DNA of 64,000 nt from Acidimicrobiales bacterium (GTDB lineage: Bacteria; Actinomycetota; Acidimicrobiia; Acidimicrobiales; Aldehydirespiratoraceae). The position numbers and the translations under genes were made by a program. Shown here one piece after another: positions 8,932 through 63,679 of the stretch. Every line of letters begins with the position of its first letter. The first letter of the stretch is position 1. The stretch covers positions 2,851 through 66,850 of the forward strand of contig JAJCXZ010000081.1 in assembly GCA_029263175.1 (NCBI GenBank). Direction: 5' to 3'. The notes under the pieces are model-generated. The model did not search any database. It was given only the letters and a program-made list of their open reading frames with translations, and was not told the DNA's origin.

Positions 8932-9194
8932 TCGTCCCCGTAACGCGCGATCGGGCCGACCATGTCGGTGAACAGGGCGAGCACCTCGCCGTCGTCGGCA
9001 TGGCGCCCTGTCTCTTGTTTCGAGTAGATCAATTGGCCGTCAACCGTCACGTCGAACACGCCCTTGGAACCCATGACGAGCCGAAGCTCCTCGATGACGT
9101 GTTGGTAGTTCGAGAGCAAATCGGAGACCGCGCTCACGGCGCGGGACGAATAGTCTCAAGGAACGCAGTAGGTAATTTCCACGCGGTGAGTCAT
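8928..9194 (-). CDS. SelW-like / Rdx family selenoprotein (CVP-U redox motif, in-frame TGA at 9156..9158)
   Basis: Read-through product MTHRVEITYCVPUDYSSRAVSAVSDLL...GVFDVTVDGQLIYSKQETGRHADDGE; ORF track shows only the part after the TGA; SECIS-like hairpin 11 nt 3' of UGA. Confidence 0.7.
9128..9144 (-). promoter_or_regulatory. putative bacterial SECIS hairpin (SelW-like gene)
   Basis: mRNA CCGCGC-CGUGA-GCGCGG, 17 nt, begins at nt 12 after UGA; possible lower stem GAGA/UCUC. Confidence 0.6.
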
Positions 9195-9204
9195 ATCGGT
9201 GACT

Positions 9205-9681
9205 TTAGTGAGGCCACGCCGCGATCGCCGCAGTGGTGGCATCCAGCGCTCGAATCAGGTCGCCGGGTGCGAGGCCGACCTCGAGCCCGCGGCGCCCTCC
9301 GCTGCAATGGATCTGGTCGTGTGTCATCGCCCACTCGTCGAGAAAGGTCGGCGCTCGTCGCTTCTGGCCGAAGGGACTGATTCCGCCAACCACGTAGCCG
9401 GTGCGCCGCTCCGCCTCGGCCGGATCGGTCATCACCGCCTTCTTGGCCCCCGCTGCCGCTGCGATCGCCTTGAGGTCGAGCTTGCAGATCACGGGCACGA
9501 TCCCGATGGCATATGTGCCATCGTCGAGCGTCACCATGAGTGTCTTGAAGATCGAGTCGGCCTCGACACCGAGTGCCTCCGCCGCTTCCATGCCGAACGA
9601 ACCGTGCGCGGGATCGTGGTGGTACTCGACAACGGCGTGCTCGATGCCGAGAGCTCGAAGAAGGTCAACCGCAGGCGTCAC
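9205..9681 (-). CDS. ybaK: Cys-tRNA(Pro)/Cys-tRNA(Cys) deacylase YbaK
   Basis: 158-aa ORF; FKTLMV, GYVVGGISPFGQKRR and IHCSGGRRGLEV blocks typical of YbaK. Confidence 0.85.
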   Translation of the reverse strand: MTPAVDLLRALGIEHAVVEYHHDPAHGSFGMEAAEALGVEADSIFKTLMVTLDDGTYAIGIVPVICKLDLKAIAAAAGAKKAVMTDPAEAERRTGYVVGGISPFGQKRRAPTFLDEWAMTHDQIHCSGGRRGLEVGLAPGDLIRALDATTAAIAAWPH

Positions 9682-9696
9682 GCTCCTATGTTGCCA

Positions 9697-10758
9697 TCAG
9701 CTGAGCCAGCGCTCGGCCCCCTCCAGGAGCCCATCGACATTGTCACGGGAGAAGTCATCGTCTCGTGTCTCCTGGTCGCCCATGGCGCCGAGGCTGTAGC
9801 GAACGCGGACGCCCTCGCTGATGCAGGCGAGTCGCCAATGCTGGAACGCGACGTACCAGGGGAGTGCCGAGATGTCGCGATCGGAGTCTTCGGCGTAGCG
9901 ACTGATGACGTCGTCGGCCGTGCCGAAGCCGTCAGCCCGGGTGGGCGCGTCGGCGATCCGGCCGCGGGCATCGGGATCGTCGCCCCACCACATCACCATC
10001 CCGGCAAGATCGGCGAGCACATCGCCGAGGGTGCACAGCTCCCAATCGAGCACTGCGGCGACACGGCCGTCGAAGCCCATCATGCAATTGTCGAGCCGGT
10101 AGTCGCCATGCACGATTCCGGCTCCTTGCTGCGGCGGGATCGAGGCTTCGAGCCGAGCGTGTAGGTGGTTGAGTAGTGGAATCTCACGATCAGAACCCTC
10201 GTCGATCTGCCGTTTCCAGCGACGGAGCTGACGAGCGCAGTAGTTCTCCTTGCGACCGAGCTCGCCCAAGCCGACATCGTCGGGGTTCACGGTGTGGAGG
10301 GCCACGAGCGTGTCAACCAGCGAGTCCCTCATCACCGGACGCAACGCCGGCTCGACCGCTTCGCCGTCAGCGAGGTCGAAGACGATCGAACCCTCGACGA
10401 AGCCCATCACGAAGAACGGTGCATCATTCACCGAGACGTCGTCGCAGAGTCCGACCAGGGGTGGGACTGGCACATCGGTGTCCTGGAGCGCCGCCATGAT
10501 CCGGTGTTCACGGGTCATGTCGTGAGCGCTGGCCAACACGTGCCCGGTCGGGGGGCGGCGCAGGACGTACCGAACGCCCGCCGCGTCGGTGACTCGGTAC
10601 GTGAGGTTCGATGCGCCTCCTTCGATCTGGTCGAACTGGAGTGGCGCCGCCAGCCCGTCGACTCGGGCAGCGATCCAATCGGTGACCGGGCCAGGGTTGA
10701 TCCCCGTGGGAGTGTGAGCCATCGGGAGAGGATCGCAGCTGGCGGGAAGCGTCGCCAA
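9697..10758 (-). CDS. phosphotransferase (APH/ChoK-like kinase) family protein
   Basis: Catalytic loop IVHGDYRLDNCMM and DWELCTLGD; start could instead be ATG 10722 (MAHTPTG). Confidence 0.8.
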   Translation of the reverse strand: MATLPASCDPLPMAHTPTGINPGPVTDWIAARVDGLAAPLQFDQIEGGASNLTYRVTDAAGVRYVLRRPPTGHVLASAHDMTREHRIMAALQDTDVPVPPLVGLCDDVSVNDAPFFVMGFVEGSIVFDLADGEAVEPALRPVMRDSLVDTLVALHTVNPDDVGLGELGRKENYCARQLRRWKRQIDEGSDREIPLLNHLHARLEASIPPQQGAGIVHGDYRLDNCMMGFDGRVAAVLDWELCTLGDVLADLAGMVMWWGDDPDARGRIADAPTRADGFGTADDVISRYAEDSDRDISALPWYVAFQHWRLACISEGVRVRYSLGAMGDQETRDDDFSRDNVDGLLEGAERWLS

Positions 10759-10774
10759 CTGCGAGCGTGGGGAT

Positions 10775-12373
10775 ATGAACGCGGAGATCGATACAGATGT
10801 CGTGATCGTCGGGGCCGGTTTCGCCGGCCTCTACATGTTGCATTCGGTGCGAGGGCTCGGCCTGAACGCACGCGTCATCGAGGCGGCCGACGACGTGGGC
10901 GGCACCTGGTATTGGAATCGCTATCCCGGGGCCCGTTGCGACGTGCCGAGTATGGAGTACTCCTACGGCTGGGATGACGATCTGCAACAGGAGTGGGAAT
11001 GGACGGAGCGCTACGCCACCCAACCCGAGATCCTCTCCTATGTCGAGCACGTCGCTGAGCGGTTCGACCTTCGTCGCGACATCACCTTCGAGACGCGGGT
11101 GGTGGCATCGGACTTCGACGAGACCACCGATACGTGGACGGTTTCGACCGACGCCGGCGAAGGGATCCGGTGCCGGTTCGTCGTGCTCGCCACCGGTTGC
11201 CTGTCGTCGGCGAACATGCCCGACTTCGAGGGCCGAGATGACTTCGCCGGTCGCTCGTTCCATACCGGCCAGTGGCCCCACGAGATGGTCGACTTCAGTG
11301 GCCGTCGCGTGGTCGTGATCGGCACCGGCTCATCGGCGATCCAGTCGATCCCTCTGATCGCTGCAGAGGCTGATTCCGTCACGGTCATGCAGCGCACGGC
11401 GAACTATGCGATACCGGCCCACAACAAGCCGCTCGATCCCGAAGAAGTCGCCGAGATCAAGGCTGACTACCGGAATTGGCGAGAGAAGGCCCGAGACTCC
11501 ACCGCGGCATTCGGTGGCCACCGTCCACGAATGGACGTCAGTGCCAAGGCGGTGCCGGCCGATGAACGGCAAGCGACGTTCGAGGAACGGTGGGCCTACG
11601 GCGGCCTCGGGTTCGGCGGCGCCTTCAACGATCTGATGCTCGATCAAGAGTCGAACGTGCTGGCCGCCGACTTCTTCCGGTCGAAGGTCGCTGAGATCGT
11701 CGAAGACTCCGATCTGGCACAGAAGCTGTCACCTCAGACGATTCTCGGCTGCAAGCGCATCTGTGTCGACACCGACTATTTCGCCACATACAACCGGACC
11801 AACGTCTCACTCGTCGATGTCAGCGCTACGCCGATCGAGCGCATCACCGCGACGGGCGTTGTTGTCGCCGGAGCGGAGTACGAGGCCGACGACATCGTCT
11901 ACGCCACCGGCTTCGACGCCATGACCGGCACGATCCAGCGCATCGACATCACTGGTCGCAATGGACTCTCGCTGAAGGACAAGTGGTCGGCCGGGCCGTT
12001 GACATATCTCGGGCTCGGGGTCGAGGGCTTCCCGAACCTGTTCCTCATCACCGGGCCCGGCAGTCCATCGGTGCTCACCAACATGATCGCCTCGATCGAG
12101 CAGCATGTGGAATGGATCCGAGACGTCATCGGCTCGATGACCGAGAAAGGCCAGTCCACCATCGAGGCCGACGGCGACGCCGAAGCCCGGTGGGTTGAAC
12201 ACGTGAATGCCGTCGCCGGCCTGACCCTCTTCAACAACTGCAGCTCCTGGTACCTCGGTGCAAATGTCCCCGGCAAGCCTCGAGTGTTCATGCCGCTCCC
12301 CGGCTTCCCCGACTACAAGGTCAAGTGCGACGAGGTAGCCGCGGCCGGCTATGAAGGATGGGTGCTCGCTTGA
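10775..12373 (+). CDS. Baeyer-Villiger (flavin-containing, NADPH-dependent) monooxygenase
   Basis: GAGFAG and GTGSSA dinucleotide motifs, GGTWYWNRYPGARCD, BVMO fingerprint FAGRSFHTGQWP. Confidence 0.9.
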   Translation: MNAEIDTDVVIVGAGFAGLYMLHSVRGLGLNARVIEAADDVGGTWYWNRYPGARCDVPSMEYSYGWDDDLQQEWEWTERYATQPEILSYVEHVAERFDLRRDITFETRVVASDFDETTDTWTVSTDAGEGIRCRFVVLATGCLSSANMPDFEGRDDFAGRSFHTGQWPHEMVDFSGRRVVVIGTGSSAIQSIPLIAAEADSVTVMQRTANYAIPAHNKPLDPEEVAEIKADYRNWREKARDSTAAFGGHRPRMDVSAKAVPADERQATFEERWAYGGLGFGGAFNDLMLDQESNVLAADFFRSKVAEIVEDSDLAQKLSPQTILGCKRICVDTDYFATYNRTNVSLVDVSATPIERITATGVVVAGAEYEADDIVYATGFDAMTGTIQRIDITGRNGLSLKDKWSAGPLTYLGLGVEGFPNLFLITGPGSPSVLTNMIASIEQHVEWIRDVIGSMTEKGQSTIEADGDAEARWVEHVNAVAGLTLFNNCSSWYLGANVPGKPRVFMPLPGFPDYKVKCDEVAAAGYEGWVLA

Positions 12374-12756
12374 GGCCGTGGCTGGTCGCCGCCAGCTTGG
12401 TGTTGGCGGCATGTTCGTCGACCGACGATGTCGGCGACGGCGACGGTCTGTTCCCCGACGTCGTCAGCGTCGACGCCAGACCGGCCCCCGATGGCACATG
12501 GACCTTCGACGTCACGCTCAGTTCGCCCTACGACGCACCCGATCGCTTCGCGGACGCCTGGCGAGTCCTCGCCCCCGACGGCACCGAGCTCGGGATTCGA
12601 GTGCTACTCCATGATCATGCCAATGAGCAGCCGTTCACCCGAAGTCTGAGCGGCGTGGCGATCCCTGATGGGGTGAATGACGTGACCGTGGAAGGAAAGG
12701 ACCAGCTCAACGGTTGGGGTGGAGAGGTGGTAGAGGTGAAGCTGGTACCGGAGTAG
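12358..12756 (+). CDS. putative lipoprotein, unknown function
   Basis: Signal/lipobox LVLAAC-SS near N-terminus; 132-aa ORF overlapping BVMO stop. Confidence 0.55.
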   Translation: MGARLRPWLVAASLVLAACSSTDDVGDGDGLFPDVVSVDARPAPDGTWTFDVTLSSPYDAPDRFADAWRVLAPDGTELGIRVLLHDHANEQPFTRSLSGVAIPDGVNDVTVEGKDQLNGWGGEVVEVKLVPE

Positions 12757-12781
12757 TCCGGAGGTGTGGAAGGGTGGCGCA

Positions 12782-14164
12782 ATGGAGATCTTTGACTCGG
12801 TGCTCGACATGGTCGGAGAGACGCCGTTGGTGCGCCTTCGACAGATCGGAGCGGACTTGCCGTGCCCCATTGTGGCCAAGGTTGAAGCCACCAATCCCGG
12901 CGGCAGCTCGAAGGATCGCCCCGCCATTTCGATGATCGATGCGGCTGAACGAGACGGCCTGCTGAAGCCCGGCGGCACCATCGTGGAGCCAACATCCGGC
13001 AACACCGGCGTCGGGCTGGCGATCGTCGCGGCCCAGCGGGGCTACAAGTGCGTTTTCGTCATGACCGACAAGGTCGGCGTCGAAAAGGTCGATCTTCTGC
13101 GGGCCTATGGCGCCGAGGTGGTCGTCTGCCCGGTGGCGGTCGCTCCCGAGGACCCATCGTCGTACTACTCAACAGCCGAGCGGCTCGTGAACGAGATCCC
13201 CGGCGCCTTCCGACCGAACCAGTACTACAACCCCTCGAACCGACAGGCCCACTACGAGACCACGGGCCCCGAGATCTGGCGGCAAACCGACGGCAGGGTC
13301 ACCCACTTTGTCGCCGGCGCAGGCACCGGCGGCACGCTTTCAGGCGTCGCCAAATACCTGAAGGAACAGAATCCGGACATCCAGATCATCGCCGCCGACC
13401 CTGAGGGCTCCGTTTACTCGGGAGGCTCCGGTCGGCCGTACCTCGTCGAGGGTGTGGGCGAGGATTTCTGGCCGCCGAACTACAACCCGGACCTGGTGGA
13501 TCGCACCATCGCAGTGAGCGACCAGGACTCTTTTCTCACCGCCCGTGAGGTCACCCGCCGTGAGGGTCTTCTCATCGGAGGCTCCGGCGGCACCGCAGCC
13601 AACGCGGCAATCACAGTGGCCCGCGACGCGTCGCCCGACGATCTTGTGGTCGTGTTGCTGCCGGACAGTGGCCGGCTCTATCTCTCCACGGTTTTCGACG
13701 ACGAATGGATGCACGGCTTCGGCTTTCTGCGCGCCGATGGCCCCGTGGTCGCCGATGTGCTCGAGAGCCGTCGCGACGGGGTCCCCGAGTTGCTCTACGT
13801 CCAACCGCAACAGACCGTTCGTGAGGCTGCTCGGGTCATGAGCGAGCACGGCGTCTCGCAGTTGCCCGTCGCCAAGAACGCGATGCCGCTGGCGGCCGCT
13901 GAGGTCATGGGCTCGGTCAGCGAACTCCGGCTCATGGAGCTTGCGTTCGAGACCGAGGCTGCGCTCGACAAAACAGTCGAGGACATCATGGGCCCGAAAC
14001 TTCGAACCATCGGCTCCGGTCAACCGGTGGCTCTCGCCGTGGAGATGCTCGAGTCGTGTTCCGCGCTGCTGGTGCTCGACGGCGGCCGTCCGAGAGCTGT
14101 CGTGTCATCAACCGACGTACTCACCTTCCTTTCCCGGAACGCCCACATCACCCAGGAGATTTGA
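12782..14164 (+). CDS. cystathionine beta-synthase (PLP fold type II plus tandem CBS domains)
   Basis: Start ATG 12782 (MEIFDSVLDMVGETPLVRL); PLP-lysine motif NPGGSSKDRPA; C-terminal CBS pair. Confidence 0.85.
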   Translation: MEIFDSVLDMVGETPLVRLRQIGADLPCPIVAKVEATNPGGSSKDRPAISMIDAAERDGLLKPGGTIVEPTSGNTGVGLAIVAAQRGYKCVFVMTDKVGVEKVDLLRAYGAEVVVCPVAVAPEDPSSYYSTAERLVNEIPGAFRPNQYYNPSNRQAHYETTGPEIWRQTDGRVTHFVAGAGTGGTLSGVAKYLKEQNPDIQIIAADPEGSVYSGGSGRPYLVEGVGEDFWPPNYNPDLVDRTIAVSDQDSFLTAREVTRREGLLIGGSGGTAANAAITVARDASPDDLVVVLLPDSGRLYLSTVFDDEWMHGFGFLRADGPVVADVLESRRDGVPELLYVQPQQTVREAARVMSEHGVSQLPVAKNAMPLAAAEVMGSVSELRLMELAFETEAALDKTVEDIMGPKLRTIGSGQPVALAVEMLESCSALLVLDGGRPRAVVSSTDVLTFLSRNAHITQEI

Positions 14165-15331
14165 GTGGCTGACGACATTTTCACCGATCCCCAGCAGTGG
14201 GGGTTCGAGACCCGCGCCATCCGTGCTGGTCAACATCACGACGCATCATCGGGCGCGGTGGTCACGCCGATCTCGTTGGCCACCACCTTCGTGCAGGAAG
14301 AGCCGGGAAAGCATCGCGGCTATGAGTACTCACGCACCGGAAACCCAACCCGGTCTGCGCTGCAGGACTGCCTCGCCTCCCTCGAAGGAGCGGGCCATGG
14401 CCTCGCTTTCGGATCGGGAATGGCTGCGGAGGACACACTTCTCCGCACCCTGTCGCCGGGCGATCACATCGTGCTCGGCAACGATGCCTACGGTGGCACC
14501 TACCGCCTCATCTCCGCGGTGCTCGCTCCGAGCGGTGTGGACTGGAGCGCCGCCGACCTCACCGACCCCGATTCGCTGCGCGCTGCCATGCGCCCCGCAA
14601 CCAAAGTCGTCTGGGCCGAGACTCCGACCAACCCCTTGCTGACGGTGATCGACCTGGCCGCCACCGCGGAGATCGCTCACGCGGGTGGTGCGAGGTTCGT
14701 GGTCGACAACACGTTCGCCACGCCCTACCTCCAGCAGCCGCTCTCGCAGGGTGCCGACGTCGTCGTCCACTCGACCACCAAGTACTGCGGCGGCCACTCC
14801 GACGTCGTCGGCGGTTTCATCGCCACGAACGACGATGGGCTGGCCGAACGTCTGGCGTATCTCCAGAACGCCATCGGCGCGATCGGTAGCCCGTTCGACA
14901 ACTACCTGACATTGCGTGGACTCAAGACCCTTGCCGTCCGCATGGACCGCCACTGTGAGAACGCACAGGCAATCGTCGATCTTCTCGTCGACCATCCCGC
15001 CGTCTCGCACGTGCTCTACCCGGGCCTATCCGACCATCCGGGTCATGAGGCTGCGGCTCGTCAGATGAGCGCCTTCGGCGGCATGGTGTCGTTCCGCGTG
15101 GCCGCTGGCCGCGACGCAGCGATGCGGGTCACCACCGCAACCAAAGTCTTCTCGCTGGCCGAGTCGCTCGGCGCCGTGGAATCCTTGATCGAGCACCCGG
15201 GCGTGATGACGCATGCGTCGGCCGCAGGCTCGCCGCTGGAGGTTCCCGACGATCTCGTGCGGCTCAGCGTCGGGATCGAATCAACTCAGGACTTGGTCGA
15301 CGACGTCGCTCAGGCACTCGACGGGCTCTAA
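14165..15331 (+). CDS. cystathionine gamma-lyase/gamma-synthase family (Cys/Met metabolism PLP enzyme)
   Basis: GTG start abutting CBS stop; YSRTGNPT and STTKYCGGHSDVVGG (PLP lysine) motifs. Confidence 0.85.
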   Translation: MADDIFTDPQQWGFETRAIRAGQHHDASSGAVVTPISLATTFVQEEPGKHRGYEYSRTGNPTRSALQDCLASLEGAGHGLAFGSGMAAEDTLLRTLSPGDHIVLGNDAYGGTYRLISAVLAPSGVDWSAADLTDPDSLRAAMRPATKVVWAETPTNPLLTVIDLAATAEIAHAGGARFVVDNTFATPYLQQPLSQGADVVVHSTTKYCGGHSDVVGGFIATNDDGLAERLAYLQNAIGAIGSPFDNYLTLRGLKTLAVRMDRHCENAQAIVDLLVDHPAVSHVLYPGLSDHPGHEAAARQMSAFGGMVSFRVAAGRDAAMRVTTATKVFSLAESLGAVESLIEHPGVMTHASAAGSPLEVPDDLVRLSVGIESTQDLVDDVAQALDGL

Positions 15332-15407
15332 CGGGTGTCGCACGGGTAGGCGTTCGGCGTCAGGAGTGCGGCTGAACTCTTAAGCCGCTCATCACATTCT
15401 CCTCACA

Positions 15408-15426
15408 GGTCATGTCGATCATGACC
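15408..15426. promoter_or_regulatory. perfect 7-5-7 palindrome immediately upstream of the DUF1800 start
   Basis: GGTCATG-TCGAT-CATGACC ends 2 nt before GTG 15429, in a locally AT-richer stretch. Confidence 0.25.
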
Positions 15427-15428
15427 AT

Positions 15429-16694: not shown

Positions 16695-16701
16695 GAGACT
16701 C

Positions 16702-18009: not shown

Positions 18010-18013
18010 TCGC

Positions 18014-18050
18014 CTAACGCACACTGGGGTCTGTCCCCAGTGTGCGTTAG
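18014..18050. repeat. REP-like palindromic element, perfect copy
   Basis: CTAACGCACACTGGGG-TCTGT-CCCCAGTGTGCGTTAG; right arm contains the TAA stop of the LLM gene (18047..18049). Confidence 0.85.
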
Positions 18051-18955: not shown

Positions 18956-19000
18956 GCCGTGAGGTTTCCACAGAACTGTCGATGAGGCAGAGTTGCACCA

Positions 19001-20462: not shown

Positions 20463-20471
20463 TACGCGTCC

Positions 20472-34744: not shown

Positions 34745-34781
34745 CTAACGCACGCTGGGGTCTGTCCCCAGTGTGCGTTAG
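34745..34781. repeat. REP-like palindromic element
   Basis: CTAACGCACGCTGGGG-TCTGT-CCCCAGTGTGCGTTAG; right arm holds the TAA stop of the UGSC gene. Confidence 0.85.
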
Positions 34782-35308
34782 AGCCCGGTGAGCGACGCGA
34801 TCAGTTCGTCGACCGCTTTGTCGGCGATCTCCCGCATCTCGTCGTCGGTGCGGTCCTGGATCGGATGCTCGGTGTAGACACGAGCGGGTTCGATCCCGAG
34901 GCTCGCCGCCTGTGCTTCCGCGGCAGAAGTGAATTCGACCGTGGCCACGAACACGCCGGGGATTCCGCGGCGCTCGAGATCGCTGATGTCGTGCACACTG
35001 CACGACGTGCAACTTCCTCAATCGGCCAATGCTTCGATCACCGCATCACATGACGTGGCGATCTCATGGCGCAGGTCGACAGGGGCAGGCTTGGCAAATG
35101 TCGGCTTCGCGAAGCGCTTCACCTCGGCGCCGACAGCAGTCAGCCGCTCTTCGATCTGATCGAGGAAGACGTTGCCGCGTGCCTTGGAGATGTCGAGCAA
35201 ACCAACGGTGAGACCGTTGAGAGACTCCGGTCGAGTGACCAGTTCGCGGTGCTGAGGCTTCAGCTCTCCGGTGGGATCCAGAACGACGGTGTTCGCAGAC
35301 GTGCTCAT
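34778..35308 (-). CDS. UGSC-motif selenoprotein (in-frame TGA at 35018..35020)
   Basis: ORFs 35018..35308 and 34778..34996 are in the same frame, separated only by TGA: ...CDAVIEALAD-U-GSCTSCSVHDISDLERRG...; SECIS-like hairpin 11 nt 3' of UGA; ATG overlaps upstream stop (ATGA). Confidence 0.75.
34988..35006 (-). promoter_or_regulatory. putative bacterial SECIS hairpin (UGSC gene)
   Basis: mRNA GUCGUGCA-GUG-UGCACGAC, 19 nt, begins at nt 12 after UGA. Confidence 0.6.
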
Positions 35309-36759
35309 CGGGTGATCTCCTTCGTGACGGTGACACTACCTGTGCCGCCTGCTACCCATCCACCGAACGTCATGGAGAAAAGGCCGGCATTGCTGCCGGC
35401 GTGAACGACATGAATGCCGCCCGGTGGGAACTTCGGGACCTGGATGCCGGCAAACGCTTCGGGAAGTCCCTCTCCGATGCCATCGGCACCATGGATGATC
35501 TCGTCGGCCTCGATCATGAGATGGCGCTCGAGTTCCTCCAGGAAACGTACGCGGTCCCAACCGGCGTCTTTGAAGCGAGCCATGTGTTCGGGGCCGATCA
35601 CCAGCATCGTTTCGAATCCCATGGCGAGACGGGGGCTGATGTTGGCGCGCAGGGCCAGTGCCATGTGCTTGACCAGTGAGTCAGCCGATCGGGAGATCTG
35701 ATCGAAGATGATGCGAGGGGATTCGCCGGAGAACAGCGTCACGGTCGACTGGTCGACGGAGAACCCTCGACTCTCGGCCAACGAGGTCCACGGCGACCCC
35801 TCCTCGTCCTCGGGAAAGGCCAAGCCGATCTTGTGCGGGCTGCCGTGAGTCGATCGGTCGACGCCACCGGGCTTGCCGCCGCCGACATTGGAGATCACCA
35901 ACTGCAGCGCGCGCCCGATCGTGGAGTTGGCCCGGTTGCCTTGGCCAAGCACGTTCATCCCGCTGTTCATGCCGATCTCACGACGGATCGGTCCGTTGAC
36001 GATGATGACCGGACCCGTCGGCATCGTGGTGGCCAGGAGACCGTGCATGTTGAACTCGTCGGTGCATGCGGCCTCGACCGCGGCGATGACGACAGGTAGG
36101 TACTCAGGCAGACAACCAGCCATCACCGCGTTGACCGCGATCTTCTCGACAGTGCACTCGACGAGGTCGGGGGGCACGATCGCCACGACGTCCTGAGGGT
36201 CCCTACTCGTGCCCTGGAGCATGCGGAGAACGCGCGCCTCGGTCGGAGGGACGACCGGCAGGCCATCGCTCCAGTCCCGGTCGTACATCGCTTCCCACTC
36301 GTCTTCGAGCGCGGCGATCTCCACTCGGCGGCTGTTCATCGTCGACTTCGAGAACCGAACGGCCAGCTCATCAGTGCGAGACGGATCGACGCTCAGCGAA
36401 CCGCAGCCGGGCCGCCATTCGGGAAGGTCGGGGCCGAGACCATCGACCCCGGTGAGCGACTCCCAGTCCTCACGAGACCAGCCTTCGATCTGGGTCGTGG
36501 CTGCCCCGTCTGCGACTCGCAGCAGGGTCGGCACGGTCACGATGTCGTGGTGCCAGGAGAGGGCGAGGTCCTGGTCGAACACGACCCAATCGGCGGCCGC
36601 GGGAAAGTCGGGATTGTCCTGCGTGATCACGGTGATGTCGGCCCGCTCGGCCAGGTCGGCGAGCACCGGAGCGACCAGCACGCACGTCGGGCAATCTTCC
36701 TTGACGATGGCTACCAACCCGTCGGGCAGCGGCGGTCGAGTCGTTGCATCAGCGCTCAT
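35305..36759 (-). CDS. thioredoxin-like (CPTC) domain fused to a large uncharacterised domain
   Basis: Start ATG 36759 (MSADATTRPP...); N-terminal VKEDCPTCVLVAP...VPTLL Trx-like module; about 370-aa C-terminal part not recognised; translationally coupled to the UGSC gene. Confidence 0.6.
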   Translation of the reverse strand: MSADATTRPPLPDGLVAIVKEDCPTCVLVAPVLADLAERADITVITQDNPDFPAAADWVVFDQDLALSWHHDIVTVPTLLRVADGAATTQIEGWSREDWESLTGVDGLGPDLPEWRPGCGSLSVDPSRTDELAVRFSKSTMNSRRVEIAALEDEWEAMYDRDWSDGLPVVPPTEARVLRMLQGTSRDPQDVVAIVPPDLVECTVEKIAVNAVMAGCLPEYLPVVIAAVEAACTDEFNMHGLLATTMPTGPVIIVNGPIRREIGMNSGMNVLGQGNRANSTIGRALQLVISNVGGGKPGGVDRSTHGSPHKIGLAFPEDEEGSPWTSLAESRGFSVDQSTVTLFSGESPRIIFDQISRSADSLVKHMALALRANISPRLAMGFETMLVIGPEHMARFKDAGWDRVRFLEELERHLMIEADEIIHGADGIGEGLPEAFAGIQVPKFPPGGIHVVHAGSNAGLFSMTFGGWVAGGTGSVTVTKEITR

Positions 36760-36849
36760 CGCCCCACTCTGGCACACCGAAAGAATGGTGAGATATTCGT
36801 CACACACATCTCGACGGCTGTGGACAACCTGGCTACCTTGGGCGAGGTA

Positions 36850-37710
36850 ATGGGGGAATTCCGAGAAGCAGTCACGATTGCGTTCCATGGTGTTCGCGGG
36901 TCGACGCCCTGCAGCTGTCCGCAACTGCAGCGCTATGGCGGCAATACGTCGTGCGTCACGATCGAGACCCCAGGGCACGATCCGATCGTTCTCGACCTCG
37001 GCACCGGACTGCGGATGTGGGGAGCTTCGCTCGGCCGCCCCGAGTCGCTCACGGTCCACGCGCTGGTCACCCATCTGCACTGGGACCACGTCCAGGGCCT
37101 GCCGTTCTTCAAGCCCCTGCAGTGCGACTCCACCACCCTCAACGTCTACGGACCGGGCGAGGGCGGCGAGTCGTTGGGGGAGTGCTTCAATCGGTTCATG
37201 ACACCCCCGTTCTTCCCGATTCAACCGAAAGACCTGCCCGCCACCGTCGAGTTCCGCGATGCGCTGTGCAGCGACTTCACCATCGGTGATGCATCGATCA
37301 TGGCGCGACCGGTTCCACACACCGGACCCACCGCCGGTTATCGCGTGACCTACGGCGATCTGGCGGTCGCCTATGTGCCCGACCACCAGCAGCCGGTCGA
37401 CACGTCCGTCGTGGCCGAGTCAGTGCTCGAGCTCTGCGACGGTGTCGACCTGCTCATCCACGATGCGCAGCTTCGTGCCGATGAATTCCCCGACAAGTCC
37501 GACTGGGGTCACTGCACCCCGGCCTACGCCGTCGAGGTTGCTCGGCAAAGCGGCGCGAAGTCGTTGGTGCTCTTCCACCATGACCCTGGCCACGACGATG
37601 CCGAACTCGATCGCATGACCGAGAGAGCTCGAGAGATCGCCGGCGCTGACGGGGTATCGGTCATCGCCGCCACCGAAGGCCTGAAGCTCACCCTCGGCGC
37701 CGGTCTCTGA
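36850..37710 (+). CDS. MBL-fold metallo-hydrolase
   Basis: Start ATG 36850 (MGEFREAVTIAFHGVRGS...); HLHWDH (HxHxDH) and later His/Asp ligands (HDAQ, FHHDP). Confidence 0.8.
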   Translation: MGEFREAVTIAFHGVRGSTPCSCPQLQRYGGNTSCVTIETPGHDPIVLDLGTGLRMWGASLGRPESLTVHALVTHLHWDHVQGLPFFKPLQCDSTTLNVYGPGEGGESLGECFNRFMTPPFFPIQPKDLPATVEFRDALCSDFTIGDASIMARPVPHTGPTAGYRVTYGDLAVAYVPDHQQPVDTSVVAESVLELCDGVDLLIHDAQLRADEFPDKSDWGHCTPAYAVEVARQSGAKSLVLFHHDPGHDDAELDRMTERAREIAGADGVSVIAATEGLKLTLGAGL

Positions 37711-38779: not shown

Positions 38780-38780
38780 C

Positions 38781-51857: not shown

Positions 51858-51897
51858 AGCGGGGGAGGGTAGTGGGCACGACCCGTAGGATCGGTTC

Positions 51898-54957: not shown

Positions 54958-54981
54958 CGCCCGCTGACGCTACAGCTCGAC
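54951..54981. repeat. direct repeat copy A (covers the TPR gene start)
   Basis: GGTCCATCGCCCGCTGACGCTACAGCTCGAC; 29/31 identical to 59798..59828, similarity extends about 16 nt further into coding sequence. Confidence 0.8.
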
Positions 54982-55070
54982 ACCGCAGTGATGCGTCTGA
55001 CAGTGAGCTGACAGCGATCTGAGGAGGTGGTGGATCAGTGTTCGCTTCACACCCATCAGAGGAGAAACTA

Positions 55071-56875: not shown

Positions 56876-59757
56876 CGGGGCAGCGACGCGAGAATGCGGA
56901 GGCGTTCCAGCGACCCGAAGACGGCGTCACCGGGGGTGCCCTCGCCCGTCCCCGGGTTGTCGAGCGCATCCGCGCCGAGCTCGTGACGAATCGCACTGGC
57001 GGCGGCAGTGAGTCGGCCGACGTCGGCCGACCCTTCTGCAGGGTCGTAGGTTCCGCTCGCGTACACGGCTGTCAGGAGCCGAGCAGCCTCGTCGAACTCA
57101 CCGAGCCGGACAAACAGATCCACGACCGTGCGGGCGGCGATCCAGATCTGTACCCATGCCCCGGACTCACGCCAGAAGTCGAGTCGGGACAGCAATGTCG
57201 GGATGGCGCTGTGCGGGTCGCCGTGGCGGATCTCGAGGCCGCAAAATGTCAAGTCGCTCACGCCGGCGATGAAGTGGGCACCTTGTTGGTTGGCGACCCG
57301 CGTCGCCCGCCTCAGCGAGCGGAGTGCCCGGTCCGGGTCCGACTCGCTGAAGGCTTCGCCTTCCGCATAGTCGATCCACGCGAGAAACAGTGAGTCTGGA
57401 TCGGCCAGCGTCCGGGCTTCGCTCAGTGCGGCATCAGCTTCATCGAGGTCGCCGTTGTAGCCGGCAATCATTGCGTAGTCGGCCAGGTCGGTGACCAGAC
57501 GCGCCGGGTCGTTCATCCGGCGAGCGATGTTTGTCGCCTCAAGGAAGAGATCCGTTGCGAGTTGGCGATTGCCCGCAAAATTTTCGATATCTGCCATCGA
57601 GGTCATCGCGCCATGACCGGCATCGATGGTCAGCGAGGTGGCGCCGACATGTTCCGCTTGCATGGCGAATCTCGTTGCTCGGTCGAGGTCGCCCGCCTGC
57701 CATGAGCCGATCGAGGCGGATGCGAGCACGGACTCGGCGTGCTCGGCGCCGACATCGCCGAATCGCTCAGCGGTCTCCATGATCCACCCGAACATCTCGC
57801 CTTGGGCGTGGAAGAGGGCGGGATAGTGAAGACAGTGCGCGAGGAGAAGCGCGGCTCCCGCATCGCTGTTTCGAAGAAGTCGTTGGTGAGCGAGTCGAAT
57901 CTCATCATGGATCTCCATGACGGTGCGAACCATCTCGCCCTCGGCGGCGGTGGTGAAGGCCGCATACGCAGCCTCGACCTGGTGAAGCACCCAGCGGCTA
58001 TGGCGATCACGCGCTTCGTCCTCCGCATCCTGGTTGGAGAGCGCCTCTCGGGCGACCAGCCTGATCGTCTCCAGGAATGAATACCTCTGGCCCCGGCCGG
58101 GCTCAGCGGTTGTGGTGAGCAGCGAACGGTCAGCGAGGTCCATCAGTGCGTTGGCGATGTTGGTGGTGGTCGGTGCTGCGACAGCAGCGGCGTCCGCAGC
58201 CGTGAACGAACCGGCGAAGACCGACGTTTGCAGCAAGATGGCGAGGAGATCAGGTTCGAGGTCTCGTAACGACCAGTCCACAAGCGCCGCCAACGATCGA
58301 TGTCGCTCGTCAGCGGTTCGTCGGCCCCGAGACAACAAGCCCAGCGTCTCGTCGAGGCCGGCAGAGATCTGGTCGATCGTCATCGTCGAGGCGCGAGCAG
58401 CGGCCAGTTCGATCGCGAGCGGTAGCCCGTCGAGTTCCCGGCAGATCTGCGCTGCTGTCTCCTTCGTGTCCACGTCGAAGCTCAGTCCAATCGCTGACAT
58501 CGTCGCGCGTTCCATGAACAACTCGACTGCTTCGTGGTCGGTCGAGAGCGGGTCAAGCCGGAGGAGTCGCTCCGCGTCGATGTTCAACGGTTCCCTCGAT
58601 GTGGCCAGGATTCGAAGACGCGGCGCACTCCTGATCACGGCATCCGCGAACCGCGCGACTGCGTCGATCAGGTGCTCACAGTTGTCGAGAACCAGGAGGA
58701 GCGGCCGGCTGGCCGCGGTCTCGATCACCCGGTCGGTCCACGACACGTCTACTTGTGGTGACAGCTTGAGAGCGTTGGCGACGAACTCCGCCACCTGCGT
58801 CGGATCACGTAGAGGGGCCAGCTCGATGAATACGGCACCTTGCGCGGCATCGATCAGCCTGAGGGCTTCGAGGGCCAGTCGAGTCTTCCCCACACCGCCA
58901 GGGCCAACGACCGTGAGGATGCGGCTCGACTCCAGCGCCGCCCCGACCTCGCCGACCTCCTTGGCGCGGCCGAGAAACGATGAAGCCGGCAGCGGGAGCG
59001 GAGTGGGGGTGCTCACAGGGTCTCCCGCTTCCCGCGGTCGGGCGGGGGCAGCATGCTCGCCCAAGATGATGGCTGTCTCGAGCTCGCGGAGTCGGTCGCT
59101 CGGCTCGAGGCCGAACTCCTCGATCAGTGACTGGCGATACTCCGAATAGACCGCGAGCGCCCGGGTCTGGTCTCCAGCGATGGAACGGGCGATCATCAGC
59201 ATGTGAATGGTTGTCTCGCGGAAGGGGTCGATTGCGCGAGTGCCTTCGAGTTCGGCGAGCGCCTCAGGGATTCGATCGAGCGTCACGAGTTCCTCGGCAC
59301 GCAGGTCCTGCAAGGCGATGAGCGTTTCGCCCAGGCGGAGCTCAGCGGCAGTGGCATGCGGGTCATCGAGCTCGCGGAAAGGGGCACCGCGCCAAAGGGC
59401 GATGGCGTCGTCGATGGTGCGGAGTCGCTCGCCCACCGGGGTCGCCGGGATGGCCGAATACAGCGCTTCGAAGAGAGCGATGTCCAGTGCGCCGACGGGA
59501 GTGGCGAGGCGGTAGCCGGCGCCGACCGGGACGACACTCGCCTCGGCAGGGAGAATCTTGCGAAGACGAGAGACATGGTTCTGCAGCGACGCTGTGGGAT
59601 TCTCGGGCTGATCGGTGCCCCAGATGAGGTCGACAAGTCGTTCGGTGGAGACGACACGGCCTCGGTCCAAAGCGAGTGCCGTGATCAGAACGCGCTGCGC
59701 TTTGCTGCGGAGCGGGCCACGTCCGTCGATCGCCGGCTCACCGAGCACTCGGATCAT
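56872..59757 (-). CDS. AfsR/SARP-type regulator (winged-helix + BTAD + NB-ARC ATPase + TPR)
   Basis: Start ATG 59757 (MIRVLGEPAIDG...); LWRGAPF, P-loop GPGGVGKTRLA, C-terminal TPR-like repeats. Confidence 0.85.
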   Translation of the reverse strand: MIRVLGEPAIDGRGPLRSKAQRVLITALALDRGRVVSTERLVDLIWGTDQPENPTASLQNHVSRLRKILPAEASVVPVGAGYRLATPVGALDIALFEALYSAIPATPVGERLRTIDDAIALWRGAPFRELDDPHATAAELRLGETLIALQDLRAEELVTLDRIPEALAELEGTRAIDPFRETTIHMLMIARSIAGDQTRALAVYSEYRQSLIEEFGLEPSDRLRELETAIILGEHAAPARPREAGDPVSTPTPLPLPASSFLGRAKEVGEVGAALESSRILTVVGPGGVGKTRLALEALRLIDAAQGAVFIELAPLRDPTQVAEFVANALKLSPQVDVSWTDRVIETAASRPLLLVLDNCEHLIDAVARFADAVIRSAPRLRILATSREPLNIDAERLLRLDPLSTDHEAVELFMERATMSAIGLSFDVDTKETAAQICRELDGLPLAIELAAARASTMTIDQISAGLDETLGLLSRGRRTADERHRSLAALVDWSLRDLEPDLLAILLQTSVFAGSFTAADAAAVAAPTTTNIANALMDLADRSLLTTTAEPGRGQRYSFLETIRLVAREALSNQDAEDEARDRHSRWVLHQVEAAYAAFTTAAEGEMVRTVMEIHDEIRLAHQRLLRNSDAGAALLLAHCLHYPALFHAQGEMFGWIMETAERFGDVGAEHAESVLASASIGSWQAGDLDRATRFAMQAEHVGATSLTIDAGHGAMTSMADIENFAGNRQLATDLFLEATNIARRMNDPARLVTDLADYAMIAGYNGDLDEADAALSEARTLADPDSLFLAWIDYAEGEAFSESDPDRALRSLRRATRVANQQGAHFIAGVSDLTFCGLEIRHGDPHSAIPTLLSRLDFWRESGAWVQIWIAARTVVDLFVRLGEFDEAARLLTAVYASGTYDPAEGSADVGRLTAAASAIRHELGADALDNPGTGEGTPGDAVFGSLERLRILASLPR

Positions 59758-59804
59758 GCCGGGAGTCTTCCAGGCGGGTCGACCTCGAGCCAGAACTGGT
59801 TCAT
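59754..59804 (-). other. 16-codon upstream ORF overlapping the SARP start (relic of the TPR gene 5' end)
   Basis: ATGAACCAGTTCTGGCTCGAG... = MNQFWLEVDPPGRLPA*, stop overlaps regulator ATG (ATGA); first codons parallel MDRFDL of the TPR gene. Confidence 0.3.
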
Positions 59805-59828
59805 CGCCCGCTGACCCTACAGCTCGAC
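59798..59828. repeat. direct repeat copy B (covers the MOSC gene stop)
   Basis: GGTTCATCGCCCGCTGACCCTACAGCTCGAC; contains the TAG stop of the MOSC gene (59817..59819). Confidence 0.8.
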
Positions 59829-60245
59829 GGGATCGCCGATCTTGACCGAACCACCGCGGAGCACGCGGCAGATGACACCGGCTCGCCGGCGAAGCGCGTC
59901 TTTGGCTCCCCGTCCGAGTCCGTCTTCGAGAAGCTTGCACGGCGCCGCGATACGCACCACTTCGAGTTCGACCCCCGCGATCGACCAGCGATGACCGGGT
60001 GTGGTGGGGACCGGGCCGACATCGATGGTGATGTTTCGTCGCGTTCGCAGCGGATCGATCGTCGAGCCGAACATCTCGGTTGCCTCAGCCAACTCTGATG
60101 CGCTCTGCACGCTCACCTGGCGGTGGCGCGTCCCGTGATAGCGGTCACCGATGATTCCGGCCGCCATCTCGATCTCGATTCGGTCGACGGCGACCATGCC
60201 GAGCTTCGCCGCCTTCGCGATCTGAAGGCCCGAGACGCGAGGCAT
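59817..60245 (-). CDS. MOSC domain-containing protein
   Basis: Start ATG 60245 overlapping sufU stop; GDRYHG, RRNITI and conserved Cys (AAPCKLL) of MOSC domains. Confidence 0.75.
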   Translation of the reverse strand: MPRVSGLQIAKAAKLGMVAVDRIEIEMAAGIIGDRYHGTRHRQVSVQSASELAEATEMFGSTIDPLRTRRNITIDVGPVPTTPGHRWSIAGVELEVVRIAAPCKLLEDGLGRGAKDALRRRAGVICRVLRGGSVKIGDPVEL

Positions 60246-60742
60246 CAGGTGATCGGGGAGGCCTCGTCGAGGGCCTGGGCCAGGGTGTTCCAGCCGAGCG
60301 TGGCGCACTTGATGCGCACTGGGAACTTCACAACACCCTTGAGCGCTTCGAGGTCGCCGAGCTTCGTGTCGCCGGAGTCGATGCTGAGTTCGATGCCCAT
60401 GTCGGCTTCGCTGCCGTCGCCACCGATCTCACCCTCGTGGATCGACATCAGGCCCTTGAACGCGCCGATCAGGCGACGGGCGTAGGGGACGGTCTGACCC
60501 TTGACCGCAGCTGACATCATCGATGCCGAGGACTGACTGATCGAGCAACCCTGACCGCCGATGGCGATGTCGGTGATGAGGCCGTCGTCATCGACATCGA
60601 TGTAGACGATGATCTCGTCACCACAGAGCGGGTTGAAGCCCTCGGTCTTCACCGCGGGCGGCGACTCCAGCTCGCCGCGGTTTCGTGGCGAGCGGTAGTG
60701 ATCGAGAATGATCTCGCGGTAGAGGTCTTCGAGGCCGGGCAT
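60245..60742 (-). CDS. sufU: SUF-system Fe-S scaffold/sulfur acceptor SufU (NifU/IscU-like)
   Basis: NPLCGDE, GQGCSISQSSASMM, IKCATLGW cysteine motifs. Confidence 0.9.
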   Translation of the reverse strand: MPGLEDLYREIILDHYRSPRNRGELESPPAVKTEGFNPLCGDEIIVYIDVDDDGLITDIAIGGQGCSISQSSASMMSAAVKGQTVPYARRLIGAFKGLMSIHEGEIGGDGSEADMGIELSIDSGDTKLGDLEALKGVVKFPVRIKCATLGWNTLAQALDEASPIT

Positions 60743-60757
60743 AAGGGTTGCTGGTCC

Positions 60758-61987
60758 TTAGAACGAGAAGATGTCGGACGCCTCGGTGAGCGTCTCAGCG
60801 AGCAGATCGATGTCGGATTCGTCGTTGTAGATGTAGAGCGACACGCGGCTGGTGGCGGGCACTCCGAGAGTCCGCAGCAACGGCTTGGCACAGTGGTGGC
60901 CGGCCCGCACACAGATGCCCTTCTGGTCGAGGACCTGGGCGACATCGTGGGGATGGACCTGGTCGTAGACGAACGACAACACGCCGCCGCGCTCGGCCGG
61001 CTCGGACGGGCCATGAATGGTGATCTTGTCGCCGTGACGCTCTTTGAGAGTGCGCAGGGCGTAGGCGGTCAGTTCGACTTCGTGCTTGCGCACTTCGTCC
61101 ATGCCGATCTCGTTGAGGTAGTCGATCGCGGCGGCAAGACCGACAGCTTCAGCGACCATTGGAGTGCCGGCTTCGAACTTCCACGGGACTTCGTTGGTGG
61201 TGAAGCCTTCCTTGGTGACGTTGAGGATCATCTCGCCGCCGCCGAGGAATGGAGGCATGGCCTCGAGGATCTCCTCACGAGCCCACAACACACCGATACC
61301 CATCGGGCCGAGCATCTTGTGGCCGGTGAAGATGAGGAAGTCGGCGCCCATCGCTTGCACGTCGGTTGCCAGGTGGGGCACGTATTGGCTGCCGTCCACC
61401 GCGATCAATGCCCCGTGGGCGTGCGCGGCTTCGGCGAGGCGATGGATCGGGTTGAGCGTGCCGAGCACATTGCTCATGGCAGTGATCGACAGGAGCTTGG
61501 CGCCGTCGAGCAATTCGTCGAGATTGCTGAGATCGAGGTGGCCATCGTCCTTGACGGAGATCCAGCGGAGCTCGAAACCCTTCTCGGAAGCAAGCATGTG
61601 CCAGGGGACGATGTTGGCGTGATGTTCCATCTCGGAGATGACGACCGCATCGCCTTCGCCGAGGTTCGCTCCACCCCATGAGCGAGCCACCAGGTTCAGG
61701 GCCTCGGTGGCGTTCTTGGTGAAGACGACTTCTATTGAAGACGGAGCGTTGATGAAAGCGGCGACCTTCTGGCGGGCGCCTTCGATTGCGTCGGTTGCCT
61801 TGACCGCGATGTCGTACGAACCACGGTGCACATTGGCGTTGATGGTCTCGTAGTAGTTCGACATGGCGTCGATTACCCGCTGCGGTTTTTGTGACGTGTT
61901 GCCCGAGTCGAGATAGACCAGGGGTGCGCCGTTCGCGGTCTGCTTGAGCACGGGGAAATCGGCCTTGATCGCCGCCCAGTCGGTCAT
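60758..61987 (-). CDS. sufS: cysteine desulfurase SufS (group II)
   Basis: HHANIVPW, FTGHKMLGPMG (PLP lysine), RAGHHCA active-site loop. Confidence 0.95.
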   Translation of the reverse strand: MTDWAAIKADFPVLKQTANGAPLVYLDSGNTSQKPQRVIDAMSNYYETINANVHRGSYDIAVKATDAIEGARQKVAAFINAPSSIEVVFTKNATEALNLVARSWGGANLGEGDAVVISEMEHHANIVPWHMLASEKGFELRWISVKDDGHLDLSNLDELLDGAKLLSITAMSNVLGTLNPIHRLAEAAHAHGALIAVDGSQYVPHLATDVQAMGADFLIFTGHKMLGPMGIGVLWAREEILEAMPPFLGGGEMILNVTKEGFTTNEVPWKFEAGTPMVAEAVGLAAAIDYLNEIGMDEVRKHEVELTAYALRTLKERHGDKITIHGPSEPAERGGVLSFVYDQVHPHDVAQVLDQKGICVRAGHHCAKPLLRTLGVPATSRVSLYIYNDESDIDLLAETLTEASDIFSF

Positions 61988-62745
61988 GCCGTGACTCCGA
62001 AGCGTTCGTAGCCCTCCCGCTCCAGCTGCTTCGCGAGTTCGGCGTCGCCGGATTCGACGATTCGACCGTCGATGATCACGTGAACCTGGTCGGGCTGCAG
62101 CTCATCGAGGAGGCGCTGGTAGTGGGTGATGGCGAGGACGCCCAGTTCAGGACGATCGCGGCGGACTTCCTGCACACCGCGGCTGACAACCCGAAGGGCA
62201 TCGATGTCGAGGCCGGAGTCGGTCTCGTCGAGGATGGCCATCTCGGGTTCGAGGATTGCCATCTGGAGGATTTCGTTGCGCTTCTTCTCGCCGCCGGAGA
62301 AGCCCTCGTTGAGGTAGCGATCGGCGAAGGATGCGTCCATCTCCAAACGTTCCATCCACTCCATGATGGCGAGACGCAGCTCGAGCACCGACAGGTCGAT
62401 GCCCTTGCGGGCCGACAGTGATTGGCGCAGGAAGTTGAGAACAGAGACGCCGGGGATCTCCTGGGGGTACTGGAAGGCCAGGAAGATGCCGGCTTTGCCG
62501 CGCACATCGGCGGGCCAGTCGGTGACGTCCTCACCACGGAAGTGGATCGAGCCCGCGGTGACCTCGTACTCGGGGCTGCCGAGGAGGACGCTGGCAAGCG
62601 TGGACTTCCCGCTGCCGTTGGGGCCCATAAGGGCGTGGACTTCACCGATGCCGACCGTGAGATCGACACCTTTCAGGATCTCGTCGCCGCCTTCGACAGT
62701 GCTGGCGTGCAGACCCTTGATTTCGAACAGGGGAGCCTCGGACAT
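61984..62745 (-). CDS. sufC: Fe-S cluster assembly ATPase SufC (copy 2)
   Basis: GPNGSGKST, FSGGEKKRNE, AILDETDSGLD, ITHY; by eye roughly half the residues match copy 1. Confidence 0.9.
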   Translation of the reverse strand: MSEAPLFEIKGLHASTVEGGDEILKGVDLTVGIGEVHALMGPNGSGKSTLASVLLGSPEYEVTAGSIHFRGEDVTDWPADVRGKAGIFLAFQYPQEIPGVSVLNFLRQSLSARKGIDLSVLELRLAIMEWMERLEMDASFADRYLNEGFSGGEKKRNEILQMAILEPEMAILDETDSGLDIDALRVVSRGVQEVRRDRPELGVLAITHYQRLLDELQPDQVHVIIDGRIVESGDAELAKQLEREGYERFGVTA

Positions 62746-62791
62746 ACGGAAAGTCTATGCACCCTCCCGGGTTTGTCCTACCGGCGTAGTG

Positions 62792-63679
62792 CTAATTCAT
62801 CGAGGTCGGCGTGGCGTACCGTGCGGGTCGACGAGCCGTGTAGAGAAATCGGGCCAGGAGTCCGTCGTCGAGGCCGGCGAGAGTGCGTCGTCGGCTGTCG
62901 AGTCGATCGTCGTACATCTCGTCGCCCATGGACGTCCGTAGCGACCCTTCGTGCCGTGCGCCGGCGTCGATCCAACGCTGTTGCGTTGCCCGATACTCGG
63001 CAGTCACGTCGGTGGCGCTGACGCTCTCAAGCCCCGCGGATCGCATCATGCTCTGGTAGCTGGTTCGCACCGCACCGCTGCCGGGCCCTGCCGCGTTGGC
63101 GCGCCGACGATCGTTTCCGGAGAGGCCAGGTGTGGGCTGGATGGTGAAGAACGCCACGCGTCCGCCCGGCTTGAGAATCCCTCTGCATGCACTCAACACG
63201 GAGTGCTTGCGGCGAATTCAACACAAGAGGTCGCCGTGAGTAACCGCATCAACCGACCCACGACGAATCGGAATCAACTCGGCATCGCCCCGTATCGCAG
63301 CCGATGGGGTCGCGAGCCTGTCCTCTCTCAACCGGGCGCTTGTAGTGGCGCAGCCTTCTGAGACCGGATCGATGCTGATCACTGCACAGCCTGTGGTCTT
63401 CGCGAGATGCAGGCCGGGCCAGCCGCAGCCCGAGCCCAGGTCGACGAGCACCTTGCCCGGTCCGAGCTGAAGCAGATCGCTCAGCAGGTCGGCCTGCGCC
63501 ATCGTGGTGTAGCCGTTGGCCCGATAGTCGCTGCCGAGTGTTTCGAACTCGGTCGCCATCTCCGCCGCCGTCCCGATGAGGCTGTATCGCTCGGCGAAAC
63601 GCTCGGGATCATCCGCGGCGAACGTTCGCACTACGCCGCCGGGTTTGCGAGCAACGGCCAAGGGCGATGCCGTTCCCAT
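62792..63679 (-). CDS. class I SAM-dependent methyltransferase, candidate selenoprotein (C-U dipeptide, in-frame TGA at 63218..63220)
   Basis: ORFs 63218..63679 and 62792..63199 share a frame. Joined product reads VLVDLGSGCGWPG...SVDAVTHGDLLC-U-IRRKHSVLSACRGILKPGGRVAFFTI, restoring motif I through post-II of one methyltransferase. SECIS-like hairpin at 11 nt. Start uncertain. Confidence 0.55.
63185..63210 (-). promoter_or_regulatory. putative bacterial SECIS hairpin (methyltransferase gene)
   Basis: mRNA GCA-A-GCACUC-CGUGUU-GAGUGC-A-UGC; upper stem begins at nt 12 after UGA. Confidence 0.5.

Follow-up and report, generated by a model that had tools for sequence, protein, structure and literature searches.

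Three probable selenoprotein genes with SECIS-like hairpins of one layout in an Acidimicrobiales genome that uses several

The window analysed here, a stretch of 64,000 nucleotides (nt) from an Acidimicrobiales bacterium (assembly GCA_029263175.1, contig JAJCXZ010000081.1, our C81), carries three in-frame UGA codons, each followed after 11 nt by a small hairpin with GUG in its apical loop. With high probability, as judged from sequence, these hairpins are functional bacterial selenocysteine insertion sequence (SECIS) elements within genuine selenoprotein genes, namely a SelW-like gene, a UGSC-family gene and a gene for a class I S-adenosylmethionine (SAM) dependent methyltransferase. Homology spans each TGA, cysteine (Cys) aligns with the position of selenocysteine (Sec, U), and the TGA is conserved in orthologues, all of which bears out the proposal of a preliminary description that the three triplets are Sec codons. 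The layout of 11 nt plus GUG is, however, the commonest of several in this genome and not a rule of the lineage.

All three sites are on the minus strand, in frame within read-through open reading frames (ORFs). The UGA of site 1 (9156..9158, U13 of the SelW-like gene) is followed by SECIS 1 (9128..9155), made up of the spacer GACUAUUCGUC (11 nt, 9155-9145) and the 17-nt hairpin CCGCGC-CGUGA-GCGCGG (9144-9128), with a stem of 6 base pairs (bp) and a loop of 5 nt. At site 2 the UGA (35018..35020, U97 of the UGSC gene) precedes SECIS 2 (34988..35017), which consists of the spacer GGAAGUUGCAC (11 nt, 35017-35007) and the 19-nt hairpin GUCGUGC-AGUGU-GCACGAC (35006-34988), having a 7-bp stem and a 5-nt loop; RNAfold also closes the A-U pair here, which gives 8 bp around a triloop of GUG. 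Site 3 (UGA at 63218..63220, U154 of the methyltransferase) leads into SECIS 3 (63189..63217), with the spacer AUUCGCCGCAA (11 nt, 63217-63207) and the 18-nt hairpin GCACUC-CGUGUU-GAGUGC (63206-63189), whose stem is 6 bp and whose loop is 6 nt. The three spacer strings are each unique within the window. The stems are perfectly Watson-Crick paired and free of bulges, each hairpin is present in the minimum-energy fold (RNAfold), the distance from UGA to loop is 17, 18 and 17 nt at sites 1, 2 and 3, and all three pass the energy filter. Rfam, by which bacterial SECIS elements are poorly covered (Actinomarina preprint), gave nothing at gathering thresholds across the window, with only a chance RAGATH-32 match to site 1 at E <= 10. 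Spacers of 11 nt, hairpins of 17, 19 and 18 nt and the loops CGUGA, AGUGU and CGUGUU had been described exactly in the earlier account. Its span for the three sites, 9128-63210, is correct at the start but not at the end, since 63210 lies within the third spacer; the sites in fact span 9128-63220.

The gene of site 1 (8928..9194, -) encodes an 88-residue member of the SelW/SelT/SelH (Rdx) family, starting with ATG at 9194-9192 and ending at a true stop TGA at 8930-8928 (-). Its product reads MTHRVEITYCVP-U-DYSS..., where the motif Y-C-V-P-U forms part of EITYCVPU, an N-terminal beta-strand followed by CxxU. Both family models are matched above their cut-offs, PF10262 with 66.7 bits (cut-off 22.6) and TIGR02174 with 52 bits (cut-off 34.2). 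Orthologues were surveyed in 151 genomes of the same order, and the SelW-like gene was detected in 39 of the genomes searched. Among the 27 orthologues read, 26 have TGA and one has TGT (Cys), while the 11-nt register is kept in all. Across these 27 sequences 86% of the cells of SECIS 1 are paired, against only 19-60% in registers slid by 1-3 nt, with compensatory changes at 4 of the 6 pairs and an invariant C-G-U in the loop. The TGT orthologue (L060, G040:C16:3611-3850; 76% identity) has an intact CCGCGC-CGUGA-GCGCGG hairpin, apparently a fossil SECIS remaining from a recent change of Sec to Cys. The neighbourhood (7534-10725, -) comprises, in order, an APH-family phosphotransferase, a YbaK-like tRNA_edit gene, the SelW-like gene and a Pyridoxal_deC decarboxylase gene, the GTG start of the last overlapping the stop of the SelW-like gene (GTGA), which suggests translational coupling.

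The UGSC-family gene of site 2 (34778..35308, -; 176 residues) reads ...EALAD-U-GSCTSC..., with the motif D-U-G-S-C, and scores 156.9 bits against NF041046 (cut-off 125) and 152.4 bits against PF24696. It was detected in 74 of the order's genomes searched, and the closest relatives, judged by this gene, are metagenome-assembled genomes (MAGs) of Acidimicrobiales and Acidimicrobiia. All 30 orthologues read from the order and all 80 species representatives (110/110) have the TGA, the 11-nt register and the invariant loop AGUGU. Entropy at third codon positions falls to 0-0.47 bits over the 19-nt hairpin, compared with 0.7-1.8 bits in the spacer and 0.9-1.9 bits downstream, and 7 of the 80 show a compensatory pair that is synonymous (UCA with CAU). 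The ATG of the gene overlaps the stop of the ORF upstream (ATGA). That ORF (35305-37386, -) contains a thioredoxin-like CPTC motif and matches no Pfam family at an E threshold of 1e-5 and no NCBIfam family at 0.01; it may be the 'Unknown_1' domain that the Global Ocean Sampling (GOS) study reported in fusion with UGSC proteins. The open frame running through UGSC extends to 430-690 residues in several relatives. A second UGSC paralogue elsewhere in the genome (G000 C45, minus strand, index 46591) reads H-U-GSCTTG and scores 96.9 bits with NF041046, below the cut-off; no clean hairpin follows its TGA in any register, the only such site among the 22 Sec codons counted in this genome (see below).

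The methyltransferase gene of site 3 (62792..63679, -; 295 residues) reads ...DAVTHGDLLC-U-IRRK..., so that a C153-U154 dyad follows beta-strand 4, and matches PF08241 (Methyltransf_11) with 48.2 bits (cut-off 21.2). A search of 5.8 billion proteins returned 15 full-length homologues of 29-44% identity, every one of which has C-C at the C-U columns. The closer matches are public fragments of 162-194 residues ending ...LC exactly at the TGA, which shows directly that gene callers cut the gene short at this point, as the earlier account had expected of such genes. Orthologues occur in 8 of the 151 genomes sampled, and all 8 have C-U, the TGA, the 11-nt spacer and a 6-bp stem, together with the loop CGUG(C/U)U, in which C-G-U-G is invariant. 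Pairing of SECIS 3 reaches 100% of cells in the 8 orthologues, against 27-69% in slid registers, and includes two compensatory pairs (A-U/U-A and U-A/G-C) brought about by paired substitutions in the protein (His/Leu with Ser/Arg). The arginine codon in the 3' arm of the hairpin ends in A in 6 of the 8 genes (AGA or CGA), AGA being otherwise the rarest sense codon of the genome. In three Cys-form methyltransferase genes the stem is lost, with just 4, 2 and 4 of its 6 pairs left. Beside one C-U methyltransferase orthologue (L018, G080:C87, frame +1 near 600-1500) lies an ArsM-like methyltransferase gene, likewise with a TGA in frame, here at LWTG-U-IAGG, where the UxxG Sec of ArsM is known to lie.

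Background rates were obtained with a strict pattern, defined as TGA + 11 nt + a perfect stem of at least 6 bp + a loop of 3-7 nt containing GUG. It follows 35 of the genome's 123,238 TGAs, while spacings of 4-21 nt instead give 13-42 matches each, and the pattern is thus without genome-wide enrichment over other spacings. It occurs after about 2.5e-4 (about 0.025%) of other TGAs, so that roughly 0.45 chance matches would be expected for the 1,817 TGAs of the window; the window has three matches, and these are the three homology-verified Sec codons and no others. A looser 'modal' pattern (spacer 10-12 nt, at least 6 bp, G first or second in the loop and U directly after it) fits 8 of 22 Sec codons and 0.31% of other TGAs, and the published consensus, in a perfect-stem version, fits 16 of 22 and 9.7% of random TGAs. 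The preliminary description had held three such sites to be hard to attribute to chance, and chance is excluded by these figures. Equal frequency after other TGAs, or absence of the Sec machinery, would have spoken otherwise; the machinery is in fact present, and other TGAs are followed by the pattern 100 to 700 times less often.

The window belongs to an assembly of 4.40 Mb in 111 contigs with 64.5% G+C, in which selA (386 bits) and selB (278 bits), both above cut-off, lie side by side on C75. SelB has 572 residues and combines GTP_EFTU with a C-terminal SelB-wing_3 domain. The selD gene (355 bits; C3, minus strand, L010/L173) has an in-frame TGA at GAG-U-GCK and is itself a selenoprotein gene, and ARAGORN places a tRNA-Sec(UCA) on C30. 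A census combining a 3-periodic, 4th-order Markov coding margin with a relaxed hairpin search, followed by profile scans, identified, beyond the window, 19 or more additional selenoprotein genes by profile matches that span an in-frame TGA, bringing the genome to at least 22, a lower bound for which FdhA and other families were not specifically sought. They are located on contigs C1, C3, C4, C17, C26, C28, C32, C45, C48, C49, C50, C59, C61, C83, C91, C102 and C111 and encode SelD, five PrdB/GrdB-like proteins, two AhpD_rel_CFYUT proteins, one peroxidase-related protein (CHYU), the second UGSC protein, GPx, ArsC, a DsbA-like protein, a WAxxUGC protein, two TlpA-like (WAPxUPTC) and two ResA-like (HTYUAAC) proteins and a MerB-like protein. 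Under the six-gene criterion the genome qualifies as 'selenoprotein-rich' (PMC5029168). Deltaproteobacteria, Clostridia and Synergistetes were the phyla that the 2016 survey singled out as rich (PMC5029168); for an actinobacterium, 22 or more Sec genes are an unusually large number. An active Sec-decoding system, a possibly rich selenoproteome and a GC-rich genome of actinobacterial type had all been anticipated from the window, and each agrees with the located genes, the gene count, the base composition and the affiliation of the closest UGSC relatives.

Several candidates did not survive. A codon-usage log-odds filter returned 65 candidates, nearly all of them adjacent same-frame genes, and missed every known site; the three window genes score -0.15 to 0.36 log-odds per codon, and with a threshold of about 0.2-0.25 a filter on codon bias passes over them. 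Rejected on inspection of family matches were a 'GSTU' candidate on C14 (no family match), an 'HLYUC' candidate on C77 (the PPOX domain stops before the TGA) and a 'GLGU' candidate on C49 (the acetyltransferase match stops before the TGA). In the window a fourth in-frame TGA (9697-9699, -; 377 + 163 codons) is a stop between the APH-family and YbaK-like tRNA_edit genes, which share a frame by chance, with a GTG start just after it. The TGA at 14162 (+), with GTG directly after, likewise looks like a stop between two same-frame genes, and the window holds no credible fourth in-frame Sec codon.

The window sites could be taken to express a universal, lineage-specific SelB requirement for 11 nt plus GUG, usable as a genome-wide detector; a scan of the whole genome for this layout had been suggested in the preliminary description. 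The three sites and a PrdB-like gene on C45 fit the strict pattern exactly, and spacers of 10-12 nt are the largest single class; the requirement is nevertheless very improbable and already contradicted by the genome as a whole. Measured from UGA to the first paired base, the spacers of the 22 genes are 10, 10, 11 (six genes), 12, 13, 13, 14, 14, 16, 16, 17, 18, 18, 19, 26 and 28 nt, with one gene unclear. An 11-nt spacer is thus found at 6 of 22 Sec codons and 10-12 nt at 9 of 22, but 12 of the 22 homology-supported codons have 13-28 nt, and the distance from UGA to loop ranges over 17-35 nt. Loops of GGUC type (7) or GUU type (6) are as frequent as those of GUG type (7), GU being present in 21 of 22. 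SelD orthologues, read as a check on the long spacers, show conservation equal to that of the window sites: the 6-bp hairpin of SelD, with the loop GGUCG, lies 26 nt after the UGA and is kept in 26 Sec-form orthologues with 99.4% of cells paired and three compensatory pairs, values reached by 0 of 500 shuffles, while two Cys-form SelD genes have no such pairing. Between the UGA and this hairpin selD also has a small conserved helix (CGCC-CCN-GGCG). As a detector the strict pattern does find the three window sites, and with them the PrdB-like gene, the fourth true match; its remaining 31 of 35 matches are false, being off-frame junk rich in Arg, Pro and Ser, and its sensitivity is 4-5 of 22. 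The shared geometry is a property conserved family by family, inside the known bacterial SECIS envelope.

Other readings deny the hairpins a function altogether. That they are by-products of conserved amino-acid sequence, or chance palindromes in G+C-rich DNA and not selected RNA, draws on the overlap of the UGSC hairpin with the highly conserved peptide C-T-S-C-S-V-H-D-I, on weak fold z-scores and on the roughly 10% of random TGAs that meet the simple SECIS consensus. It is even less probable, as synonymous third positions in UGSC are frozen only within the hairpin, paired non-synonymous changes preserve the stem in the methyltransferase and SelW genes, and Cys-form methyltransferase and SelD genes, with similar peptides, have lost the pairing. 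If the TGAs were genuine stops, lesions of pseudogenes or the result of frameshift or sequencing errors, with separate or dead ORFs on either side, it would be clear why gene callers split or truncate these genes and why public protein fragments end at the TGA. This is hardly credible when 8 to 110 independent genomes have TGA at the same codon, profile matches run across it, U is aligned with a catalytic or conserved Cys, and the genome has a complete Sec machinery. Genome-wide reassignment of UGA, for example to Trp or Gly, would make the hairpins irrelevant, a notion of negligible probability: TGA is absent from the 1,009 long ORFs of high G+C at third codon positions that formed the codon-table training set, though these were defined stop-to-stop, it terminates the SelW gene and the ORF upstream of UGSC, the in-frame TGAs align with Cys and not with Trp or Gly, and a tRNA-Sec with anticodon UCA is present.

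Some observations do weigh against reading the hairpins as functional SECIS elements. Binding of SelB to them and insertion of Sec are presumed from sequence, in a lineage that is uncultured. The RNAfold z-scores of the 59-nt stretches are weak, -0.4 to -1.5, and at 64.5% G+C thermodynamics alone would not pick the hairpins out. A covariance model, as the earlier account had recommended, was built from the SelW SECIS only and recovers its own site (E = 3.8e-11), but other matches in the window have E >= 1.4 and the other two SECIS elements are not found, so the 'shared geometry' holds little sequence information. The upper stem of E. coli fdhF has a bulged U (U17) that contributes to SelB binding, and the window stems are without one. 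Rfam, by which bacterial SECIS elements are poorly covered (Actinomarina preprint), gave nothing at gathering thresholds across the window, with only a chance RAGATH-32 match to site 1 at E <= 10.

If the hairpins do act as SECIS elements, decoding would be expected to proceed as follows. With a ribosome at the UGA, the hairpin would stand just outside the mRNA entry channel and offer the G-U of its apical loop to SelB, at the C-terminal winged-helix domain. Tethered there with Sec-tRNA(Sec) and GTP, SelB would then permit insertion of Sec without termination. The three elements belong to the genome's commonest SECIS class, with a spacer of 10-12 nt and the loop G-U at nt 19-21 after the UGA, in essence the minimal SECIS geometry of E. 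coli fdhF, the other hairpins of the genome beginning 13-28 nt after the UGA.

The finding is real and its interpretation sound, yet it is known biology and leaves the understanding of Sec decoding unchanged. Its value lies in annotation: at least 22 genes here, and others across much of Acidimicrobiales, are cut or split at the Sec codon by standard gene callers, including that of selenophosphate synthetase. With a fixed detector of 11 nt plus GUG, fewer than one true site in four is found and about 90% of the matches are noise; homology with Sec/Cys pairing should lead detection, the hairpin serving as confirmation. One SelB system appears to serve hairpins 10 to 28 nt after the UGA. Side results are the size of the selenoproteome in an actinobacterial lineage and a C-U methyltransferase that is probably a selenoprotein uncatalogued so far. 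The broader proposal, that this methyltransferase founds a new selenoprotein family and that the order is an unrecognised selenoprotein-rich actinobacterial lineage, is tentative, plausible but slightly more doubtful than not.

Known selenoprotein methyltransferases, namely the arsenite methyltransferase with UxxG, MduS, methyltransferase/UXPK-star and the ArsM fusions (PMC13188914), all share with the window protein a class I SAM fold with Sec. MduS has CxxU and two Sec residues (PMC13188914). In the window methyltransferase a single Sec lies in the C-U dyad after beta-strand 4 and not at the UxxG position (the equivalent of ArsM Cys224). The models of catalogued selenoprotein methyltransferases are all matched below cut-off, NF008823 (ArsM) with 36.6 bits against 263, NF041537 with 34.2 against 510, NF047649 with 25.9 against 460 and, as the best, NF045667 with 48.2 against 155. 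With scores far below every family cut-off, the protein is not a member of these families.

The SelW-like (Rdx, PF10262) and UGSC (NF041046) genes have counterparts in aquatic metagenomes, with the same CxxU and UGSC motifs and with scores above the cut-offs. Both belong to the most abundant selenoprotein families sampled from oceans and fresh water (PMC1088965, PMC2398784). The rest of the set (SelD, PrdB-like, AhpD-like, thioredoxin (Trx)-like, peroxiredoxin (Prx)-like UGC, ArsC, DsbA and GPx proteins) matches the composition of the GOS dataset. There the families are known from anonymous reads, whereas here the genes sit in an assembled Acidimicrobiales genome, so that the 'aquatic' metagenome selenoproteome is now placed in a concrete actinobacterial lineage.

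The hairpins themselves compare closely with the bacterial SECIS consensus, which prescribes a loop of 3-9 nt and a stem of 4-16 bp, asks for G in the first two loop positions, with G or U usually next, sets the loop 16-37 nt from the UGA and limits the hairpin energy to at most -7.5 kcal/mol (Zhang and Gladyshev 2005, via PMC13188914). As stem-loops immediately 3' of an in-frame UGA and inside the ORF, all three satisfy its sequence constraints and show no substantive difference from it, lying at the short end of the allowed spacing. For E. coli, where SECIS spacing is experimentally critical, Liu et al. reportedly found in 1998 that the minimal fdhF element is a 17-nt upper stem-loop 11 nt after the UGA with G23/U24 in the loop. 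The window elements agree with fdhF, as first described, in the 11-nt spacer, which is present at all three sites and in all orthologues read, and also in hairpins of 17-19 nt, in the loop G-U at nt 22-24 from the U of UGA and in the presumed reader, the C-terminal winged-helix domain of SelB. They differ in the loop, (C/A)GUG(A/U)(U) against AGGUCU in fdhF, and in the host, here an actinobacterium with a SelB of 572 residues whose SECIS spacing varies from 10 to 28 nt.

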